Assembly: GCF_030013595.1 (NCBI RefSeq)
Contig: NZ_CP122768.1
Source: Escherichia coli
GTDB taxonomy: Bacteria; Pseudomonadota; Gammaproteobacteria; Enterobacterales; Enterobacteriaceae
Length of the DNA stretch: 64,000 nucleotides
Reading direction: 5' to 3' (one strand)
Of the stretch, positions 10,428 to 51,524 are shown piece by piece. The notes beneath the pieces are model-generated. The model searched no databases, was not told where the DNA came from, and saw only the letters and a program-made list of their open reading frames with translations. Numbering within the stretch: position 1 is the stretch's first letter; each line of letters begins with the position of its first letter. Made by a program: the position numbers and the translations under genes.

Positions 10428-12250
10428 ACAGTCTGATTTCCCTGCGGGTTGATCGGTAAAATAAGGGTGAAGGTTGCGCCGTAGCCCGGCAAACTGGCGA
10501 CGCGAATATCACCCTGATGGGCATTAATGATGCGTTGACTTAACGCCAGACCAAGCCCGGTTCCTGAGGCTTTGGTGGTGAAAAAGGGATCGAAGATCTT
10601 TTTTTGCAGCGAGAGATCAATGCCACAGCCGTTGTCCTCTATCGAAATGGCCTGTTGTGAGTCGCTGTATTGCCAGGTTTGAATGCGAATTTTCCCTCGT
10701 GCGCTGATAGCCTGGACGGCATTGATCAGGATATTCAGTAGTACCTGTTTGAGCAGTTCACGATCGGCGTTAATCGGGTTTAATTCATTATCCAGTTCGC
10801 TTATGAAGTCGACCCGCGCTTGTACGCCGGCGGTTTGTACCAGTACCAGAGTTTCTTCAACCAATGCATTGAGACTGACTTGTTGCCATTGACTGTGGCG
10901 TGGACGTGAAAATTCGAGCAATTGCTGAATAACTTTGTTAATTGAATCGATTTCTTTGAGTACTACGGACAGATATTCCTGATGTATTAGGTCGCTGGTT
11001 TGTTGGCGCAAGATCTGTACATAACCACGAATAGCCGTTAGCGGATTACGTACTTCATGCGCGACGCCAGCCATCAGCTCACCCAGTGTAGCGAGGCGTT
11101 CTGCTTGCGCCATGCGGCGCTGGGTTTCTTTGCGGGCAGTTAAATCAGAGAAAATCACCAAAGCACCTATCATTTCACCATGCGTGTTATGAATACGACT
11201 GGTAGTGACACTGAGTTCAATGGTGCGGTCACGGCCTGGAAAACTGATCTCCAGCGCCACATGTTCGGTGCCATGTTCCAGCGTATCCAGTACGGGACTG
11301 TAGAACTGAGTATTGTCGAATAACATGGAGTAAGGCTGCCCTACCAGTTCATGACGTTGATAGCCAGTGATGACTTCTGCTGCCGGGTTCATGGTGGTTA
11401 CATCACCCTGGCGGTCAATGGCAATGACGCCATCGGCAGCGTTTTCAATAATCAGATCGTTAAGTGTCCGCGTTTCACGCAGTGCCTGGGCGAGGTTGTT
11501 AACACTCTGACTGATTTGCCCCATTTCACCGGGCAATTGTGGTAATCGAGTGGGAATATTTTGCGCCAGAGTCGAGAGGCCATCGGTGATGATATCAATA
11601 TTGGCGCTCAGGCGACGGGAGAAAAGGACAATCAACAGCAGGCTTATCAGCAAACCGGCGGTGAGCACAATGATAATCCTCACATCCATTTTCCAGGCCT
11701 GGCGGCGAATATCTTCGGTTAATTCATTGGCCCAGATATAGCCGAGGATTTCACCATTACGCTCAATGGGGATCATTGAATTCAAAATATCGCCGCGCAC
11801 CTGCCTGCCTGAATAAACCAAAGGGGTATTTGTACGCATGACTTCGCGACCAGGATGATCTGCGGCAATGGTAACGCCGACATTATTTTGATATAGCGCT
11901 GAAGGCGCGTAGGTGATTATCGCATCCAGCGTTTTGTTGTAATAACCAGCGCCGATGCCAGGGAAGGCGTGAGTGATATTTTCGGTAATGGGGGCAAGTT
12001 CTGCATTTAATGCGCGGATACGCTCCTCACGTGGTAAGTCGATGTAGAGATCATAGCGATCGCCTAGTGCCTGATTAAGCAGGTTGACCACGGCAGAAAG
12101 TTTTTTCTCTTTTTCAGATAAGACTGCTGAACGTCCTTCCGTTTCTACGATATAACCAATAGTAAGCGTTGGGACAATGACCATCAGGATTGCCATCAGG
12201 ATCATTTGATTGCGTAAGCGGCGTGGATAAATCCACTTCATATAATGCAT
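10424..12250 (-). CDS. atoS: sensor histidine kinase AtoS
   Basis: Carries HAMP and PAS domains, an H-box (AGVAHEVRNPL) and an HATPase domain. I placed the start at MHYMKWIYP (608 aa) rather than the first Met of the ORF track. It overlaps atoC by 4 nt. Confidence 0.9.
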   Translation of the reverse strand: MHYMKWIYPRRLRNQMILMAILMVIVPTLTIGYIVETEGRSAVLSEKEKKLSAVVNLLNQALGDRYDLYIDLPREERIRALNAELAPITENITHAFPGIGAGYYNKTLDAIITYAPSALYQNNVGVTIAADHPGREVMRTNTPLVYSGRQVRGDILNSMIPIERNGEILGYIWANELTEDIRRQAWKMDVRIIIVLTAGLLISLLLIVLFSRRLSANIDIITDGLSTLAQNIPTRLPQLPGEMGQISQSVNNLAQALRETRTLNDLIIENAADGVIAIDRQGDVTTMNPAAEVITGYQRHELVGQPYSMLFDNTQFYSPVLDTLEHGTEHVALEISFPGRDRTIELSVTTSRIHNTHGEMIGALVIFSDLTARKETQRRMAQAERLATLGELMAGVAHEVRNPLTAIRGYVQILRQQTSDLIHQEYLSVVLKEIDSINKVIQQLLEFSRPRHSQWQQVSLNALVEETLVLVQTAGVQARVDFISELDNELNPINADRELLKQVLLNILINAVQAISARGKIRIQTWQYSDSQQAISIEDNGCGIDLSLQKKIFDPFFTTKASGTGLGLALSQRIINAHQGDIRVASLPGYGATFTLILPINPQGNQTV

Positions 12251-43972: not shown

Positions 43973-43995
43973 TTGGTCACGAGAGTATTCAAAAC
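43973..43995. repeat. distal att remnant (degenerate copy of the proL 3' end)
   Basis: TTGGTC---ACGAGAGTATTCAAAAC here compares with TTGGTCGGCACGAGAGGATTTGAACC at 54171-54196. GATTT(TT)GGTC is shared at both junctions. Confidence 0.6.
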
Positions 43996-44046
43996 ACGCC
44001 AATAACCTCTTGATTCAATTGAAGTCGAAAATTTTAAGTCAAAAAT

Positions 44047-44072
44047 CGTATAGCTTAACGTGTAGCTAAAAA
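44047..44072. repeat. 26-nt direct repeat (candidate integrase arm-type site), distal copy
   Basis: CGTATAGCTTAACGTGTAGCTAAAAA differs by 1 nt from CGTATAGCTAAACGTGTAGCTAAAAA at 54028-54053. Confidence 0.6.
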
Positions 44073-44622
44073 TGTTTGCTGCAAAAGTATACAATTTTAA
44101 CCGTTATGACTCCCTGTTATCCGTTATCAAGCTGGTGGATGATCATGGATAACCCGTTATGGGAATCCCCATATCGGCATCAGGCCCATGCCATAACAAA
44201 AACCCCATATTCGTGGGTTTTCTGTGTTGTGGCTATTCTGCCGTTGCCGTGCTGGTGGATATTTCCGGTATGTGGCTCACCATATCGGCATCACGCCCAC
44301 CAGCGCGACGCATTTTTTTAATTTCGCGGGTGTAAAAATTTGACGGGGCGGGCGGTCCTATAAGCAATGGGGGGTAGGGATTTCGATCCCCCCTCCTGAA
44401 TGCAATTTTCCGTATGTGGCTGTGCGGCAATCATACTCGTCACATGTTTTTGACAATAAAAGGCCCGACCGTGAGACTCACAAACAAAAAAGTTACGGAG
44501 AAACAGGGGATCGGGCTCGGTTGCCGCTAAATCTATTCAATTAAAAGAAGATGTCAATAGGGAAAACGAAAAAAAACAATGCTGATATTGTCATAATTTG
44601 AACAAAACCACTATATGTAGTT

Positions 44623-44853
44623 TTAGTTCATGAGGTTAGTCGCTACCAGATGCGTCAATAGTTTTTTGCTATTAATAATCCCTCTTTTTCCATCGGGAGC
44701 TTTGCACTTGTCACTACCTGGTAACTCCTGGTGGCGTTCCTGTTGCAGCACAACGGAAACAGGCGCTGAACACCTGTTAATTTTGCTTGCAGGTTGTTTG
44801 ATTTCGGCAATGCTGCGGATCATCTCCAGCATATCGGCTTCGGTGATGGTCAT
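44623..44853 (-). CDS. hypothetical small protein (76 aa)
   Basis: The ORF is preceded by an AAGGTG Shine-Dalgarno 6 nt from the ATG. I recognise no family, and it lies in an otherwise ORF-poor region. Confidence 0.35.
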   Translation of the reverse strand: MTITEADMLEMIRSIAEIKQPASKINRCSAPVSVVLQQERHQELPGSDKCKAPDGKRGIINSKKLLTHLVATNLMN

Positions 44854-44884
44854 GATTTACACCTTAGGAAATCTTAGGGGCTGG

Positions 44885-45142
44885 TTGACACTTTCCGGCT
44901 TAAGACCTTAACAAATCTTAACATCGCAGGTTGACACACTTGACACTTTTTCGCGAAAAACCTTATCAAACCTTAGCATTTCTAAGCATGGCAACTTGAC
45001 ACTTTTCGCGATTTTTTCGGCTTTTTGACGTGGTAAATCTGGCGCAAAGCCAGTAACGGCGGGGTTTACAGCGAGGTTGACACTTTTTCGCGTTCAGAGT
45101 GTAAAGTGTCAACCTGGCAAGCTGCTCAACTTGACACTTTTT
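44885..45142. repeat. iteron array TTGACACTTT(TT)CGCG (at least 6 direct copies plus 1 inverted)
   Basis: Copies start at 44885, 44931, 44940, 44996, 45077 and 45131, with one inverted copy at 45103-45112. They are interspersed with CCTTA(G/A/T) repeats and lie between the Nu1-like gene and the 76-aa ORF. Confidence 0.8.
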
Positions 45143-45146
45143 GAGG

Positions 45147-45674
45147 TCATTGATGGCCTGATTTTTCCCACTCAGCCAGGGCGTTTAGTCCGGCTTCACT
45201 CCAGTTATCCAGCTCATCGGGACAATCACCTGCAACATAGCAGAGCTCACAACGCAGCATACGAATTGCCAGCCTGGCATTTTCCCGAAAATCATACTGC
45301 TCAAAGTAATATTGCCCAGCATAATCCTCAAGGCAGATAGCACCATCATCAAGAAATTGCACTTCACAGCATAGTTCCCCGGCTGCATCCTGTACACGCT
45401 GCTGTATGTCATTGTCCGTTACTGGTGCAGGGATTTTACCGTCTCTGGCCTTAACTGCTTTCCAGAACTCGCCCCACGTCATTTCCAGCGTTCTCTCTGG
45501 CCACATTTCAGAAACGGTATCTTTTCCCTGTGCTGGTGGGCTGTTCCGCTGCTCTGTCGCTTCCACATCGATTTTTTTACCGGACATGACCACTTCGCCT
45601 TTCTCGATCCAGTCGTAAACTGTCTGGCGGCTTACGCCTTTGTGTTTGGCATATTCTGCCTTGCTCATAAACAT
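45147..45674 (-). CDS. protein with a lambda Nu1 (small terminase)-like N-terminal HTH; candidate packaging-specificity factor
   Basis: 175 aa. The N-terminus SKAEYAKHKGVSRQTVYDWIEKGEV resembles lambda Nu1 NKKQLADIFGASIRTIQNWQEQGMPV. The rest is unrecognised and Cys-rich. A good Shine-Dalgarno (GAGGGGAAG) precedes the start. Confidence 0.55.
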   Translation of the reverse strand: MFMSKAEYAKHKGVSRQTVYDWIEKGEVVMSGKKIDVEATEQRNSPPAQGKDTVSEMWPERTLEMTWGEFWKAVKARDGKIPAPVTDNDIQQRVQDAAGELCCEVQFLDDGAICLEDYAGQYYFEQYDFRENARLAIRMLRCELCYVAGDCPDELDNWSEAGLNALAEWEKSGHQ

Positions 45675-45844
45675 GACACTTCCCCTCAGACTGTATTAAT
45701 GCGCCGGAAAGCGCGTGTATTTAAATCATCCCAGGAACCGTTGAGCACCAATTAGTTGCGCGAAGTAATCGGCACCAGCGTTCCGAACAATTTCCAACTT
45801 AACGTTCTGATCATTGTTTCCTGCTGCAGGGACAATCCCACGAT

Positions 45845-46498
45845 TCATAGCCAGCGCCCGGATATTTCTTCCAGTTTTTCCAGAGCTGGCTTGCAGGCCG
45901 CATCAATAACTTCACGGACCATTCCGGCGAGCTGTTCTTCTTCTGTCGGCGTTGTTACTTCCACACCTGATGGTTTCCCGCCCTTATCCCATACGCCCAA
46001 CGGTACGAGCGCAACGTGATCGATAAGAAATGGCGTACCCTCAATGAAAAAATTGTCCTCGCCCATTACATCAGGAACTTCTGCCCCACCGGACGCACCA
46101 CAAAACACAACCGACGGGCTGGTGGATACCTCCCCCCGTGCTTTCTGGATGTAATCGATGATTTCCTGCCCGTAAATCCGGCATACGCCCCACACCTCGT
46201 CACCGCGAATATACGGCAACATGACGGTGCCAATAATGCGCGACCGTTCGCCCACGTCTTCAAGGGTTTTGCTTTCGGGATGGTCGATAATGACGGGTAC
46301 TCCGGCGCAACGTTCCAGGAACTGCGGATTGAGATAAGTTTGCGGTGAACGCCAGACAAATTCTTTTTCTTCGGCGCGATAGGCCATTCCGGTTCCTGTG
46401 ATACGCAGGTTAATCAGCCACATGTTGGAAAACTGATAAGGCGACGGTAGCTGACCGTCCCGAATCTGCTTTGCCGCCTCAATTTCTGTTAAAAGCAT
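45845..46498 (-). CDS. DUF2213-like protein (phage scaffold/prohead-protease-like family)
   Basis: 217 aa. The motifs GVPVIIDHPES, IGTV and IDHVALVPLGVWDKGG follow the pattern I remember for DUF2213. This has not been verified by HMM. Confidence 0.5.
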   Translation of the reverse strand: MLLTEIEAAKQIRDGQLPSPYQFSNMWLINLRITGTGMAYRAEEKEFVWRSPQTYLNPQFLERCAGVPVIIDHPESKTLEDVGERSRIIGTVMLPYIRGDEVWGVCRIYGQEIIDYIQKARGEVSTSPSVVFCGASGGAEVPDVMGEDNFFIEGTPFLIDHVALVPLGVWDKGGKPSGVEVTTPTEEEQLAGMVREVIDAACKPALEKLEEISGRWL

Positions 46499-46562
46499 AA
46501 TGTCCCCCGGTTATAAGCAATAAGCCCCACCAAATCCGGCAGGGCTGAAATCAGCACGTTTT

Positions 46563-47147
46563 TCATGCCCCCGCGAGGCTTGCAACGTTAATTTTAACCA
46601 GGCGACGGGGAGGGATTTTGAAAGCACTAAGCCAGTTATTCGGATCCCCCTGATATTCAGTAATCCGCCGTCCGGCTTCATCCATTCTTACGGTTTTACG
46701 CAAATAGCCCGGCGTATTTTCCACAGCCCACTGAACACTGTCTTTTGCAGCCTGGTAAATCTGATCTTCCAGCACCGCCAGCGTTGCAGAATCTGAAACG
46801 GAACGAATATCCACATCACTGAATTTTTTAGCCAGCTTCTGTGCACCAATTAATGCACGCTTGCGGTAATCCATCGACTTTTCACCAGCAAACGGGGCTG
46901 GAGCGCGACGGCCCATATTGCTGTATGCGGAATCCGCTTTAGCCTGGGCTTCTGCCAGTGAGGATTCATCTTCGACTGACGCGACGATGTTTTTATTCGC
47001 GTCATCCTCGTCCGCTTTTGTGAAATCCTGTGCGGGGATCGCATTCAGAATTTCGATAATCTCCTGCGGAGTGCTGCCCTGCGACTCTGACAGAGCGTTA
47101 ACCACCTCCATCAGTTTTAATCGCAAATCTTCTTTGCTTGCTGGCAT
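46563..47147 (-). CDS. hypothetical protein (194 aa) with an acidic N-terminal half
   Basis: The ORF has a GAGAGG Shine-Dalgarno before the ATG at 47147; the ORF track begins 9 nt earlier at a GTG. I recognise no family. It lies immediately upstream of the DUF2213-like gene. Confidence 0.5.
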   Translation of the reverse strand: MPASKEDLRLKLMEVVNALSESQGSTPQEIIEILNAIPAQDFTKADEDDANKNIVASVEDESSLAEAQAKADSAYSNMGRRAPAPFAGEKSMDYRKRALIGAQKLAKKFSDVDIRSVSDSATLAVLEDQIYQAAKDSVQWAVENTPGYLRKTVRMDEAGRRITEYQGDPNNWLSAFKIPPRRLVKINVASLAGA

Positions 47148-47186
47148 TTTTACCACCTCTCTTTTTTCACCAAAAAATCACGACCA

Positions 47187-47360
47187 TCAGGCCGGACGTT
47201 CTACGGGATAAAGCGCCCGCTGCATTAAACGCCGGGCGACCTCATGAATGCTCGGAGCAATCCCCAGCGGAGAATTGCGGCGTTCCTCGTCCTGGATGCG
47301 CTGTAATGCTTCAATCTGATCACGAGCGAGTAAAACGGGTTTCACGCTGGCTTTTCTCAT
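47187..47360 (-). CDS. hypothetical small protein (57 aa)
   Basis: An AGGAG Shine-Dalgarno lies 8 nt before the ATG at 47360; alternative ATGs are at 47366 and 47384. It is the first ORF after the tandem terminators. Confidence 0.45.
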   Translation of the reverse strand: MRKASVKPVLLARDQIEALQRIQDEERRNSPLGIAPSIHEVARRLMQRALYPVERPA

Positions 47361-47486
47361 AGTCATATCTCCTGAACAAAACAATGATTATGATTGCACA
47401 AACTGAAATAACGATCTACATCATTGCAATTTATGAAACAATAACGCATGATGATCGCGTTCTTCCCATTGACTTCAATCACCTGA

Positions 47487-47525
47487 AAAACAAAGCCCGC
47501 AACACTTCTGGCTGCGGGTTTTTTA
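47487..47525. terminator. hairpin with T-runs on both strands
   Basis: A CCCGCA-N11-TGCGGG hairpin is followed by TTTTTT on the plus strand and by TTTGTTTTT on the minus strand. Confidence 0.55.
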
Positions 47526-47531
47526 CTGGCA

Positions 47532-47557
47532 CAAAAAAGCCGGGAAAAATCCCGGCC
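47532..47557 (-). terminator. rho-independent terminator after the PerC-like gene
   Basis: The minus strand reads GCCGGGA-tttt-TCCCGGC followed by TTTTTT, 5 nt after the stop codon. Confidence 0.75.
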
Positions 47558-47561
47558 TCCG

Positions 47562-47849
47562 TCACTGACTGCAATTTTTCGATCCAGGGTATTTCCTGAA
47601 TGCCTTACCATTGGGCTGATGTAATCCCATCCCGGCATGTGCCCGGCTGATGGTTTCGCGCATTTCCCCGAAATTATCCTGCCTTGCTGGTGGGCGTGCT
47701 GCCTTGCGGATACATTCCGCGCGACGTTTTGCCGCCTGTTCCCGTGCCTTGTCATCATTCGCCAGCATGATGACCTCAGCCCACCGCGCCGCCGCTCTCC
47801 GGTACAGACCACGCGCTTCCAGTGCTTCCGCTTTGCTGTCGTGAATCAT
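47562..47849 (-). CDS. PerC/Pch-like transcriptional regulator
   Basis: 95 aa. The N-terminal AEALEARGLYRRAAARWAEV matches the PerC-family signature as I recall it. Its start overlaps the upstream gene's stop by 4 nt. Confidence 0.55.
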   Translation of the reverse strand: MIHDSKAEALEARGLYRRAAARWAEVIMLANDDKAREQAAKRRAECIRKAARPPARQDNFGEMRETISRAHAGMGLHQPNGKAFRKYPGSKNCSQ

Positions 47850-48388
47850 GCGCCTGTTTTCTCCTTTGCTGCCCGGCGCTGACGTTTGCGCTTCTCATTC
47901 AGCGCCACCAGCCGCGTTTCTGCGTCCTGTTGTTCCTGTGGTGTCACCTCGCCGCACGGCTGGCCTTTCAGGTCGTAGCGTACCCCACCAGCCATTAAGG
48001 CGCGGTAATAGCGCGGACACTGCGCATAAGATGCCAGCGTCGCACGCAATGCCCCTGGACCGAATGCCAGCCCCCTGACGGCGAGATCCTGCATCAGGTC
48101 GTCGAATATCCCCACCTTAAGCGGCTTCGGTGCTTCCCGGCTGAATAATTCAGGCCACAACTCAGTGAGGCGGTTAACGCGCCTGCGGTTTTTGCGCTGG
48201 CGTTTGGTCATATGCCGCCACGGTGTCGCCCCTGTGGGCTTCTGCTGCGCTTTCTGGTTACCGGGCATCACTTTATGCGCCGATGTGGTTTTATCCTGCT
48301 CCTGCGCCGCCTGCGTCGTTTTCTGCGGCGTGCCGTAAATGCCTTTCGGTTTTCTGTTAATGGTCAGCTTAGTCATGCTTTGCCCCAT
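47846..48388 (-). CDS. FinO/ProQ-domain RNA-binding protein
   Basis: 180 aa. KPLKVGIFDDL ... LRATLASYAQCPRYYRAL..GGVRYDLKGQPCGEV aligns with E. coli ProQ RPLKIGIFQDL ... [35 protein letters not shown]. Both the N- and C-terminal tails are basic. Confidence 0.8.
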   Translation of the reverse strand: MGQSMTKLTINRKPKGIYGTPQKTTQAAQEQDKTTSAHKVMPGNQKAQQKPTGATPWRHMTKRQRKNRRRVNRLTELWPELFSREAPKPLKVGIFDDLMQDLAVRGLAFGPGALRATLASYAQCPRYYRALMAGGVRYDLKGQPCGEVTPQEQQDAETRLVALNEKRKRQRRAAKEKTGA

Positions 48389-48537
48389 CGTTTTTACTGG
48401 TTGCTACGTTGCCCAACGGCACTGACACAACATTCTGTTTTCATTTTTAACATTCCTGATTTTTTAATTCCTCACCTGCTGCACAGTGAAAATTTATGAA
48501 GTTAATAACAATATGATTTTAAATGTATTTTTAAGTA

Positions 48538-48856
48538 CTCACTTTTTAATCCTTATATATACGCAAAAGTGAGGTAAATAGTTAAGTTTTAGTTAATATC
48601 TTGCATGGTGTGTTTTTTAACCTACCTGTTATTTTTATTACCTCATTTCTATTAACTCACCATTCCTCACTTTTGTTCCTCACTTTTTATTATTCTTGTT
48701 CTGCTCCTCAGTCGTTTTCTTTATTGTTGTAATCTGTTGTTTTGCAATGTGTTTTTAACTCCTCACTTTTTGACCTATATACAGGTGAGAAAGTGAGGAG
48801 TGGCGTTGATTTTTTGTTAAATTACCCGCCATCCTCACTTTTGCTCCTCACTTTTT
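48538..48856. repeat. iteron array CCTCACTTTT(T) in AT-rich DNA: candidate island replication origin
   Basis: Direct copies lie at 48538, 48665, 48678, 48761, 48833 and 48846. Inverted copies lie at 48565-48574 and 48789-48800, and there are degenerate copies as well. The array is immediately downstream of the helicase gene. Confidence 0.75.
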
Positions 48857-50270
48857 ACAGTGGGCGCACATAATCACCGTCAATAGCGATTACGCCGTCG
48901 CTTTCCAGCTTGTACAGCCAGCGCCGGAAGTGTTTCATCTCATACCCCAGCTTTTTCATATCATCGCGGAGAAGGGCGATAGTGCACGCCTCCCCGTGTG
49001 CTGTTCGCGTTCTGATGCACTGCCATAGCGCAGCGTGATTTTCCGTCTTGTTCCCGGCCTCCTCGATGCGTTCCAGTTCAACAGGTGGGCGCGGCTTATC
49101 CACAACCACCAGCGACGTGATTAACTCCCCGTCAGTGTCGGTAAAAAGCTCCACCACGCGTAAATCATATGCAGCCTCTTTCAGTTCCTCCGCGTCCTTC
49201 ATTTTGGTGCAGGAGATAACCAGGGCTTCACTGTCCGCACCTTCACGGCGAATACGGTATTCAGCGTCCAGAGATGCACGAAATGCACTGGAACCACGCG
49301 CCCCTTTTGTTTCATCCTTGCCGGAATGGTGAACCACCAGTACCGTGGCCCCTGTGCGTCGTTTCAGTTCGTCACATCCACGGATAAACGCCCCCATATC
49401 CCGCGCGTCATTTTCATCATTACCGCCAAAGCAACGCGCCAGCGTATCCAGAATAATCATGCGTACCGGTTTACCCGTTTCCCGTTCAACCTGACGGGAA
49501 GCGATGACCATTTCATCAACATCAAGCGGGACCGCCGGAAAAATCGGGCGGTTTACCAGGTACAGATTTTTCACCCGTTCATCATTAACGATTTCCCATG
49601 CTTTGATACGACGAGGAACACCGATCCCGCCCTCACCAACGACATACATAACCGCACCATGTACAACCCTGCGACCTCCCCAGTGGCGACCAGTGGCAAC
49701 ATGACACGCCCAGGAACACGCGAGGAACGATTTATAGGAACCGCTCGCGCCGTATGTGCTGCACAACGAATTAGCCGGAATCACGCCCTTAACGACATAA
49801 TCAAGCTGTGTGTCGTATCCTGCAGATCCAATACTCATTGGTAGCGTGGTTTTTCGCTGGCTGTATTGCTCGTCAGTAAGTATTTCCCCGCGCTCTGCCT
49901 GTTCGCGGATCCGTTGCAGGTAGTCGTGCCAGTTCTCCAGCTTCTGGCTGTGCATTCCCTCAGGGTAATAATTCGCATCCCGTACACCTGCCGCCGCCAG
50001 TTTTTGCCCGATGGCATTAATATTTGACGGCTTGATGTGGCCTGCCTTGTACAGCCGGACACAATAGCGACCATCGTCGATAATTTTCAGGTCTGCCAGT
50101 TCGTCAAGCTGGCTGTCTCCCAGCCATACAGGCGGAACATTGTCGCCAGCAAGTCGCCCGTCCTGTTCCTGCCATTGTTTCGCGTGCGCCCAGGCATCAC
50201 TACCCGCAAAAATAATGACTTCGGTCATTTTGTCGTGTGGCTGTTTTTTTAAGTTCGGTGCCAGTTTCAT
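48855..50270 (-). CDS. RepA/AAA_25-type replicative helicase-like initiator
   Basis: 471 aa with a RecA-fold core: Walker A-like GASGSYKS, Walker B MIILD and an HHSGK motif. The C-terminus is wHTH-like. It is translationally coupled to the upstream ORF. Confidence 0.7.
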   Translation of the reverse strand: MKLAPNLKKQPHDKMTEVIIFAGSDAWAHAKQWQEQDGRLAGDNVPPVWLGDSQLDELADLKIIDDGRYCVRLYKAGHIKPSNINAIGQKLAAAGVRDANYYPEGMHSQKLENWHDYLQRIREQAERGEILTDEQYSQRKTTLPMSIGSAGYDTQLDYVVKGVIPANSLCSTYGASGSYKSFLACSWACHVATGRHWGGRRVVHGAVMYVVGEGGIGVPRRIKAWEIVNDERVKNLYLVNRPIFPAVPLDVDEMVIASRQVERETGKPVRMIILDTLARCFGGNDENDARDMGAFIRGCDELKRRTGATVLVVHHSGKDETKGARGSSAFRASLDAEYRIRREGADSEALVISCTKMKDAEELKEAAYDLRVVELFTDTDGELITSLVVVDKPRPPVELERIEEAGNKTENHAALWQCIRTRTAHGEACTIALLRDDMKKLGYEMKHFRRWLYKLESDGVIAIDGDYVRPL

Positions 50271-50566
50271 TTTGTGCCCCTGAATGCGTTAATCATGTTT
50301 TTCATTTTCTGAATATTTGCCCGTGCCTTTGCGTTGCTGGTGGGCTGTTTGCGTGGTGTGGCCTGTATCAGTGAAAAATCACGCCGGAACTGATAAACAG
50401 GCATCACGCAGTCGTAGCTGTACCCATCACGGCGGTAAGTAACGCACCGTCCGGCAATACTTTTAATCGTTACCGTGCCGCCGTAGTTATCCCGGAAAAT
50501 ATCGCCGGGGCGGATTTCAGGCCGAGGGAGACCACTGGCAGTAAAGCCAGAATTTTTCTTTTTCAT
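50267..50566 (-). CDS. hypothetical protein (99 aa)
   Basis: The ORF overlaps the rep start by 4 nt. I could not confidently recognise a family. Confidence 0.5.
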   Translation of the reverse strand: MKKKNSGFTASGLPRPEIRPGDIFRDNYGGTVTIKSIAGRCVTYRRDGYSYDCVMPVYQFRRDFSLIQATPRKQPTSNAKARANIQKMKNMINAFRGTK

Positions 50567-50570
50567 GGTT

Positions 50571-50771
50571 TTATTTTCCTGTCAGCAGTTCCGGTTTTAT
50601 TTCCGCACGAATACAGAGTTCAGAAAAAAATTCAGGAGAACCAACAATCTCATTACTTTTCAGTCGGCATTGTGATTTCACTTTCCCTTTATCCAGGTAA
50701 ACCAGTATGCGTCCGGTGAAATCATCTGGCACACTCAGGGTAATTGTCATTGTTGCTTGCTGATTATCCAT
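50571..50771 (-). CDS. hypothetical protein carrying one copy of the FTG(R/Q) module (66 aa)
   Basis: It shares the pattern FTGRILVYLDKGKV...VGSPEFFSEL with both halves of the upstream 121-aa protein. Confidence 0.5.
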   Translation of the reverse strand: MDNQQATMTITLSVPDDFTGRILVYLDKGKVKSQCRLKSNEIVGSPEFFSELCIRAEIKPELLTGK

Positions 50772-51129
50772 GATTCACCCCCTGAATAACCTGATAACCG
50801 CAACTGGTCAGCAATTCGATAAATTCCGGCAGTGTTCCGAAACAGCAATCATCTCGCAGCCGTTCTCGGGATACTTCAACGCCGTTTTCGTAGTGACTCA
50901 CCATGCGTCCGGTAAAATGCAGATCATCATCGTGATGGCTCGTTAACGGCTTAATCAGTCGCGCACGTTCTGCCAGCTCCAGCAATGCTTCAACGCTTCC
51001 GGCAATTGCACCATCCGGCAGGTGATAATTACTTGCCACGCGTCCATTCTCCACGTTAACCAGTAGCTGCCCGGTGAATTTCTCATCAAACTGAATGCTG
51101 TTAAGGTCAGAAATTGACAGGTTAATCAT
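50764..51129 (-). CDS. hypothetical protein carrying two tandem copies of the FTG(R/Q) module (121 aa)
   Basis: Internal duplication: FTGQLLVNVENGRV...AGSVEALLEL and FTGRMVSHYENGVEV...FGTLPEFIEL. It overlaps both neighbouring genes by 8 nt. Confidence 0.55.
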   Translation of the reverse strand: MINLSISDLNSIQFDEKFTGQLLVNVENGRVASNYHLPDGAIAGSVEALLELAERARLIKPLTSHHDDDLHFTGRMVSHYENGVEVSRERLRDDCCFGTLPEFIELLTSCGYQVIQGVNHG

Positions 51130-51325
51130 GGCGTACCTCCTGGCGAATACGGGCAGCGAATACCATCACGCAGCCATCAGGAGATTGCTGACGCGCTTCC
51201 TGTTCGCTGGTGGCCTCAATGGTAATCACGCGCGGTTGTGCCGTGCTCAGGGCGATAAAACGCCAGATGTATTTATTCAGGTTGTGCGAGTCCCGCCCTT
51301 GCGGGTGTGTGGTATGATTTCTCAT
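51122..51325 (-). CDS. Icd-like small protein (67 aa)
   Basis: This is the 3' third of the 286-aa ORF-track entry, starting at MRNHTTHPQGRDSH. The segment YIWRFIALS...IEATSEQEARQQSP.GCVMVFAARIRQE resembles proteins annotated as host cell division inhibitor Icd-like in satellite islands. That match is from memory only. Confidence 0.5.
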   Translation of the reverse strand: MRNHTTHPQGRDSHNLNKYIWRFIALSTAQPRVITIEATSEQEARQQSPDGCVMVFAARIRQEVRHD

Positions 51326-51422
51326 AGCTACCTCGATACTCTTTCTATCGTTGGTGGTTAGAAGCCCCGTTACTGCTCCAACAGTGCGGGGTTTCGTCGT
51401 TTCTGTGCCTTGCATTAACAAG

Positions 51423-51504
51423 GTGTAAGACACAATGTAAAATACAAGTGTCTTACACGTCAAGCCTTCAAAATAATTTTTTTTCGTGTATATTGTCTTA
51501 CACC
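51423..51504. promoter_or_regulatory. operator-like repeats in the divergent control region
   Basis: GTGTAAGACAC (51423-51433) and its exact inverted copy GTGTCTTACAC (51448-51458) are joined by a third copy, GTCTTACACC (51495-51504). They lie between the Icd-like operon and the plus-strand RHH-like gene. Confidence 0.6.
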
Positions 51505-51524
51505 AACAACATAAGGAGTTAGAC

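Follow-up and report, generated by a model that had tools for sequence, protein, structure and literature searches.

What does a PerC-family protein do on a mobile satellite element? The question is raised by a 95-aa open reading frame in a stretch of 64,000 nucleotides of Escherichia coli (contig NZ_CP122768.1, assembly GCF_030013595.1), hereafter the window. The original prediction, made from the sequence alone, proposed a PerC/Pch-like regulator coupled to a FinO-like gene on a mobile satellite, which might act on chromosomal promoters (ler among those to be tested) or helper-phage promoters, or on the satellite's own late module. Loci compared with the window are denoted by L and a number, and coordinates are those of the window unless a locus is named.

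The perC gene and its protein

The 95-aa protein belongs to the PerC/Pch family. The proposed HMM search against Pfam PF06069 was positive and the match is full-length (E 2.2e-32, 111.6 bits against a cut-off of 22.6, residues 1-89, 90 profile positions). The protein starts with MIHDSKAEALEARGLYRRAAARWAEV and has the N-terminal motif A-x2-LE-x2-G-[LF]-Y-R-R-A-A-x-R-W, and the length is within the family range of about 90-105 aa. In the alignment, the part G-[LF]-YRRAA-x-RW is common to the window protein, PerC of EPEC and PchE, and residues Y16, R18, R22 and W23 are invariant across 93 aligned family members. Thus the open reading frame, its N-terminal motif and the profile match bear out the family assignment.

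The dN/dS ratio of perC is below 1, at approximately 0.1-0.2 for residues 1-55 and 0.5-0.9 in the C-terminal part. By this measure purifying selection acts on the N-terminal domain, and constraint on the C-terminal part is relaxed. The identical protein occurs in 3745 blocks of the assembly index. Because of this and of the dN/dS values, perC is considered a real gene and not a chance open reading frame. A decaying or functionless passenger would agree with the almost neutral evolution of the C-terminal third and with the truncated alleles of 54-73 aa that are common in databases. However, the reading frame is intact and preceded by a good Shine-Dalgarno box, thousands of assemblies contain the identical protein, and the N-terminal domain is the constrained one, all of which makes such a passenger extremely unlikely.

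The fold is predicted to consist of helices throughout, with a TPR-like hairpin at the N-terminus; three N-terminal helices are followed by an additional one. No helix-turn-helix or other DNA-reading motif was observed in the model. No solved PerC structure was found, and the profile search of PDB produced only a designed coiled coil (E 0.006). The predicted fold argues for interference with proteins or nucleoprotein complexes over promoter-specific activation.

The carrier island

The gene is carried by an island whose insertion site is the 3' end of the tRNA-Pro(GGG) gene proL (54172-54248), between yejM/lapC and yejO (Table 1). The ends of the island are flanked by an imperfect att repeat of the tRNA end. 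No exact att repeat of at least 11 nt was found, and the boundaries were set instead by alignment to the empty site of K-12. On the minus strand the order is integrase, AlpA-type regulator, Icd-like and small open reading frames, DUF4222 protein, RepA, origin, FinO-like protein, PerC, two terminators, and the late module consisting of a 57-aa ORF (orf57), a 197-aa protein, a DUF2213 protein and a 175-aa protein. The integrase, AlpA, DUF4222 and RepA genes, the iterons, the module with DUF2213 and TerS-like proteins, and the att site in proL together define the carrier, by its architecture, as a Gram-negative PICI; its size is in the range of about 10-15 kb expected for such elements, and it has no lysis or tail genes. 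The mobile satellite of the original prediction is therefore an island of approximately 10.2 kb at proL.

The origin is situated between repA and finO, and hence the finO-perC pair is downstream of it. Consensus promoters were looked for in the origin region, and none was found. The only Rfam match in the island is the tRNA, and neither the list of open reading frames nor the annotation contains an AraC-family gene in the island.

Table 1. Features of the island and of the perC transcription unit
Feature	Coordinates	Strand	Basis
PICI-type island, ~10.2 kb	43975-54190		alignment to empty K-12 site
Tyrosine integrase	52721-53962	-	ORF and annotation of homologues
AlpA-type regulator	51987-52193	-	PF05930 on homologous genes in related loci; PGAP: HTH regulator
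DUF4222 (RgdR-like) protein, overlaps repA start	50267-50566	-	PF13973, E 2.7e-24
RepA-type replicative helicase (AAA_25)	48855-50270	-	PF13481, E 2e-44; PGAP 'helicase RepA family protein'
AT-rich replication origin	48468-48857		GC 25-34%; at least 8 AAAGTGAGGA iterons, both orientations
ProQ/FinO-domain gene, 176-180 aa depending on the start chosen	47846-48388	-	Pfam PF04352
Shine-Dalgarno box AAGGAG of perC	47861-47866	-	11 nt 5' of ATG, within finO-like coding sequence
ATGA stop/start overlap of finO-like gene and perC	47846-47849	-	read directly: perC ATG 47849-47847, finO TGA 47848-47846
perC-like gene (PerC/Pch family), 95 aa	47562-47849	-	Pfam PF06069; PGAP name of homologue
Intrinsic terminator 1 (GCCGGGA-TTTT-TCCCGGC, then T6)	47533-47556	-	sequence and folding; 3' of perC stop
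Intrinsic terminator 2 (CCCGCAGC...GTTGCGGG, then T-rich tail)	47486-47518	-	terminator listing and folding
Late-module promoter repeats TTTCA-N3/4-RTKGCAAT, two, direct, 30 bp apart	47393-47438	-	palindromic ATTGCAAT core
orf57, first gene of late module	47187-47360	-	ORF list; ribbon-helix-helix-like appearance
Rest of late/packaging module (197-aa, DUF2213 head-protease-like and 175-aa proteins)	45147-47156	-	Pfam, PHROG

The transcription unit

The upstream neighbour of perC encodes a protein with the ProQ/FinO domain (PF04352, E 8.2e-24, 84.1 bits against a cut-off of 27, residues 68-172). The NCBIfam models of FinO and ProQ match it below their cut-offs, which are of the equivalog type. 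The gene ends with GGC GCA TGA, and perC starts with ATG ATT CAC, so that the overlap had been placed exactly in the original prediction. The four-nucleotide ATGA overlap is retained in every FinO-PerC locus examined (L005, L006, L016, L017-L026 and seven more loci). This conservation supports the proposed coupling, and we infer that perC is transcribed together with the FinO-like gene and that the translation of the two is coupled. On the other side the unit is closed by the tandem terminators; both hairpins fold, with a z-score of -3.15 relative to shuffled sequence.

The GC content of the finO-perC pair is 60-63% (47560-48390), compared with about 50% elsewhere in the island and 25-34% in the adjacent origin. 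The difference between the pair and the island suggests a cassette of different origin.

One of the loci with the overlap, L016, is from a metagenome-assembled genome labelled Candidatus Paceibacterota. Its FinO-PerC-SSB block is typical of enterobacterial satellites, and the taxonomic assignment is probably due to a binning contaminant.

Distribution and earlier reports

DNA-level homologues of perC were found in 1175 of the 5426 complete E. coli genomes, and all homologues among the matches listed are named 'PerC family transcriptional regulator' by PGAP. At E <= 0.001 the family comprises 309 clusters among 1.84 billion representatives. All of them are small stand-alone proteins, and no informative domain fusions were observed in these clusters. 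Homologues are present in 191 plasmids and in only two of 50,697 phage records. The near-absence from sequenced phages implies that PerC is associated with satellites.

Some E. coli PICIs were reported to encode PerC alleles, a part of which activate LEE (Fillol-Salom et al. 2018, PMC6092414). OI-51/Sp7 of O157:H7 (EcCIEDL933) has PchE at the equivalent place (PMC3378721), and a 2026 survey of Enterobacter lists both PerC and ProQ/FinO genes among PICI genes (PMC13612085). Given these published homologues and the RefSeq/PGAP annotation, a PICI-borne perC gene is already known and routinely annotated, and we do not present it as new.

Two plasmid observations should be mentioned. Firstly, a PerC homologue of 58% identity is encoded by a 12,152-bp 'plasmid' of a chicken E. 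coli (NZ_CP148430.1, H26), which may in fact be not a plasmid but a PICI excised as a circle. Secondly, many large E. coli plasmids of the IncF type (H41-H55) have a PerC-annotated gene whose match, at 60-63% identity, is limited to the first 33 residues and which by this alignment seems to encode a short relative limited to the N-terminal domain.

The position of perC in other islands

In every PICI type examined that has perC, the replication unit ends with this gene, and the terminators and then the late module follow. Such an arrangement was seen in classical islands having the late module of 57-, 192-, 223- and 175-aa proteins and in capsid-forming islands of the HK97 and lambda types. 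The immediate upstream neighbour varies, being FinO, SSB or primase.

On the other hand, three of the ten distinct contexts with an identical DUF4222 protein do not have perC at that place. In particular, L037 and L039 share with the window the identical DUF4222 protein and the same 471-aa AAA_25 RepA-type replicase and contain a late module, but perC is nowhere in them. In L037 (9075-9350) the hairpin of terminator 1 of the window, GCCGGGATTTTTCCCGGC, directly follows SSB, with no finO-perC in between. Furthermore, in L018 and in the window one and the same PerC allele stands before two unrelated fronts of the late module, and the joint is in the terminators. Comparison of these sequences suggests that early and late modules recombine at the terminator, which appears to be the joint in both cases. 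One PerC allele occurs alone, as a moron, in a P22-like prophage. The perC-less sister islands, the lone moron, the plasmid homologues and the GC contrast are the reasons to consider finO-perC an optional cassette inserted before the operon terminator. The comparative evidence narrows the question of what PerC does for the satellite, as perC appears to be dispensable for the late module.

Some variation was observed around these genes. In L007-L010 and L014 a field of repeats (TTCGCAGT/TGCGCA) follows perC, instead of an origin preceding finO. The right-hand ends of L017-L026, islands otherwise identical, contain variable defence-like cargo after or around the 175-aa gene: OLD/Gabija-like ATPase, Abi_2, SocA_Panacea, SieB, DUF4747 and SLT-domain proteins. 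This cargo site is a satellite defence hotspot. At the same position the window island has only short open reading frames (43990-45140), and PADLOC found no defence-system match for PerC, the FinO-like protein or the late genes.

The late module and its promoter

The constant location directly upstream of the late module, seen in all PICI types that have perC, suggests that PerC might be a late switch of the satellite, activating the packaging-module promoter beyond the terminators. The promoter region (47385-47445) has a weak -35 box and looks factor-dependent, and the association of PerC with satellites is also consistent with such a switch. The promoter region contains two direct repeats with the ATTGCAAT core, which could be considered as a candidate PerC box.

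However, the distribution of this core points to another protein. Among 41 fetched loci, many of which are near-identical so that they represent about five independent lineages, the ATTGCAAT 8-mer is present in 24 of the 24 loci with an orf57 homologue, each time immediately 5' of the late module, and it is missing from all 15 PerC loci lacking orf57. L018 retains it although the front of the module is different and orf57 is the third gene. In L005, an insertion of 1.8 kb lies between perC and the promoter, and the motif has remained with orf57. The PerC-box assignment was rejected, as the repeat tracks orf57 perfectly. Since ATTGCAAT co-occurs with orf57 alone, the operator-like element goes with orf57 and not with PerC, and the repeats are a candidate operator of the 57-aa protein. 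The latter looks ribbon-helix-helix-like and is a putative member of that class by appearance of its sequence; it had no match in Pfam, PHROG or PADLOC.

Thus the linkage of ATTGCAAT to orf57, the recombined late fronts carrying the same PerC allele, and the sister islands L037 and L039 argue against the late switch, as does the PerC model with no predicted DNA-reading motif. We consider this function improbable, and the suggestion of the original prediction that PerC could activate the module starting at 47360 did not find support.

Outside the window, ATTGCAAT sites are at 11163 and 11202 in L005, 9883 in L010, 2260 in L013 and 6433 in L018; the motif occurs once per locus of 8-18 kb and twice in L005. 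The late promoters of L037 and L039 have related TGCAAT/TTGCAA repeats.

The remaining proteins of the module resemble phage head and packaging proteins. DUF2213 is recognized by Pfam with E 2e-6, and the PHROGs of the module are 6216, 530 (head maturation protease) and 57 (terminase small subunit). The 197-aa and DUF2213 proteins (45845-47156, minus strand) match PHROG 6216, of 545 positions, at 405-544 and 115-315, respectively. Their appearance is that of a head protease/scaffold protein that was split and re-ordered, and one possibility is that they form a module interfering with capsid size or assembly. The 175-aa protein (45147-45674, minus strand) has a TerS-like N-terminal HTH domain (PHROG 57, E 5e-7). 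A sequence search of PDB with this protein found no match to solved Rpp or TerS structures, and on this ground it was rejected as an Rpp homologue. We regard it as a candidate for packaging redirection, of a type other than RppA-C.

Named relatives

Among the named alleles compared, group-3 PchE is the closest to the window PerC by sequence. PchE (ECs1588; Sp7 of Sakai, OI-51 or CP-933C of EDL933, that is, the capsid-forming PICI EcCIEDL933) belongs to PF06069 and is 51% identical to the window protein; over the first 54 residues, the window protein is 91% identical to a truncated allele named PchE. As in the window, pchE is the last gene of the replication unit before the late module, on a satellite with int, alpA, DUF4222 (RgdR) and replicase genes; Sakai ECs1581 (RgdR) has the same DUF4222 family and position as the window DUF4222 protein (PMC3378721). 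Unlike in the window, the upstream neighbour is SSB rather than FinO, the ATGA overlap is absent, and the late module has a full capsid set. Also unlike the window allele, PchE has published phenotypes: its over-expression represses csgD and curli and raises flhDC, with little effect on LEE (PMC6265319, PMC7369912).

The founding member of PF06069 is PerC of EPEC (BfpW, from perABC of pEAF/pMAR2). It is 44% identical to the window protein, has the same N-terminal motif, and the two span 89-95 aa. Both genes are the last in their operons. However, the EPEC gene is plasmid-borne, is located downstream of perB and perA, the latter encoding an AraC-type protein, and its product activates LEE1. Derivation of EPEC perBC from a finO-perC cassette was considered and rejected: PerB and FinO are unrelated (BLASTP E 0.085).

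PchA, PchB and PchC of EHEC lambdoid prophages belong to the same family and are the source of the only mechanistic data, namely anti-silencing of H-NS/StpA/Hha at LEE1 (PMC4764244). They differ from the window protein in being group 1 alleles, carried by prophages or prophage-like elements (PMC6265319) and essential for full LEE expression. The window PerC shares 64% identity with a 122-aa protein labelled 'PchABC family'. Finally, EcCIMP1_025 from the PICI EcCIMP1 of E. coli MP1 is a PerC-family protein of an E. coli PICI, for which the authors noted weak similarity to ANR. It is reported to be approximately 40% identical to other PICI PerC proteins and silences LEE1 in C. rodentium; an adjacent FinO gene was not reported (ISME J 2025, PMC11773190).

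One could suppose that the window PerC is a classical LEE activator, turning on ler like PerC of EPEC and PchA-C of EHEC, with which it shares the Pfam family and the N-terminal motif. However, it is nearer to PchE than to EPEC PerC, as the identities above demonstrate. The best genome matches to the island are porcine ETEC strains, and the nearest host genomes, these and other strains not known for LEE, we take to be LEE-negative. As already mentioned, some PICI-coded homologues are stated to activate LEE (PMC6092414), but EcCIMP1_025 represses LEE1 (PMC11773190), and little or no effect on LEE1 was reported for PchD, PchE and the homologues from EcCICFT073 and EcCIEDL933 (PMC6265319, PMC11773190). 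Given these alleles, activation of ler and LEE, also proposed originally, is not supported, and we regard it as highly unlikely.

Relationship to ANR proteins

The window PerC scores 14.4 bits (E 0.024) against the NCBIfam model of ANR (NF033650), below the cut-off of 32, and by this model it is not a member of ANR. In the family as a whole, 74 of 93 members match ANR_neg_reg over approximately 50 N-terminal residues, with the best E of 1.1e-6, and proteins of 57-69 aa consisting only of the PerC N-terminal domain reach 31.6 bits. These matches suggest that the N-terminal domain of PerC is remotely related to ANR proteins of the Aar type.

The ANR proteins Aar, Rnr and Cnr resemble PerC in being small and helical, in having no DNA-binding motif, and in their link to H-NS-dependent regulation. 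Aar has three helices and does not bind DNA; it binds AggR, one of the AraC-type activators, and H-NS (PMC5570504). The differences are that ANR proteins are of about 60 aa and have no C-terminal helix, whereas the window PerC is of 95 aa with the additional helix predicted in the model.

By analogy with Aar and AggR, PerC might be an anti-activator, binding an activator of the AraC/XylS family, H-NS, or both, and repressing the corresponding regulon. The ANR matches, although weak, are consistent over the N-terminal 50 residues across the family, and the predicted fold of three helices plus an extension is of the expected kind. Furthermore, EcCIMP1_025 acts as a repressor and an ANR-like action was proposed by its authors (PMC11773190), and EPEC perC shares an operon with the AraC-type perA. 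On the other hand, the match is below the threshold, the island has no AraC-family gene, and PerC proteins tested elsewhere are activators or anti-silencers (PMC4764244). This mechanism seems unlikely.

Proposed role

The reading that we prefer, giving it about an even chance, is that the window perC is optional cargo, carried together with the FinO-like gene at the 3' end of the early unit of the PICI and modulating silencing, by analogy with characterized relatives. Since perC appears to be co-transcribed and coupled with the FinO-like gene, PerC would be produced alongside the FinO-like protein once helper-phage induction sets off the AlpA-driven early operon, and possibly at a basal level as well. 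As a small, all-helical TPR/ANR-like module predicted to have no DNA-reading motif, it could disturb silencing complexes of the H-NS/StpA/Hha type, or partner regulators, on AT-rich horizontally acquired DNA, in the manner of PchA and ANR. The outcome would be allele- and host-specific changes in host expression, involving adhesins, flagella, curli and, if present, LEE; cross-regulation of host genes is thus plausible. PerC would not be a dedicated switch of the packaging module of the island.

The precedent is PchA, which activates LEE1 only by relieving the silencing by H-NS/StpA/Hha and lowers the occupancy of H-NS (PMC4764244). However, in the same study (Fukui et al.) H-NS was not co-precipitated with PchA and binding of DNA by Pch was favoured, so that the physical target may be DNA, H-NS or another protein. 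Three other considerations also stand against the preferred reading: the ANR score of the window protein below the curated cut-off, the lack of a consensus promoter in the origin upstream of finO-perC, and the constant position with translational coupling, which would also fit a function in the life cycle of the satellite.

In a variant of this reading PerC would be the satellite's own timed counter-silencer, an ANR/TPR-like disruptor of H-NS complexes that opens the AT-rich origin and the late region, and perhaps also DNA of the helper prophage. We consider this variant improbable. Were it true, LEE, curli and flagella would be affected only collaterally, PerC would not be virulence cargo, and the coupled FinO-like chaperone would set the dose of PerC via the terminator-rich 3' end of the mRNA.

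Returning to modulation of silencing by optional cargo, the PerC/Pch homologues carried by PICIs can rewire adhesion, motility and type III secretion, and their spread on satellites is thus relevant to the evolution of pathogens. The stretch considered here is a standard, recognisable feature of the PICI backbone.
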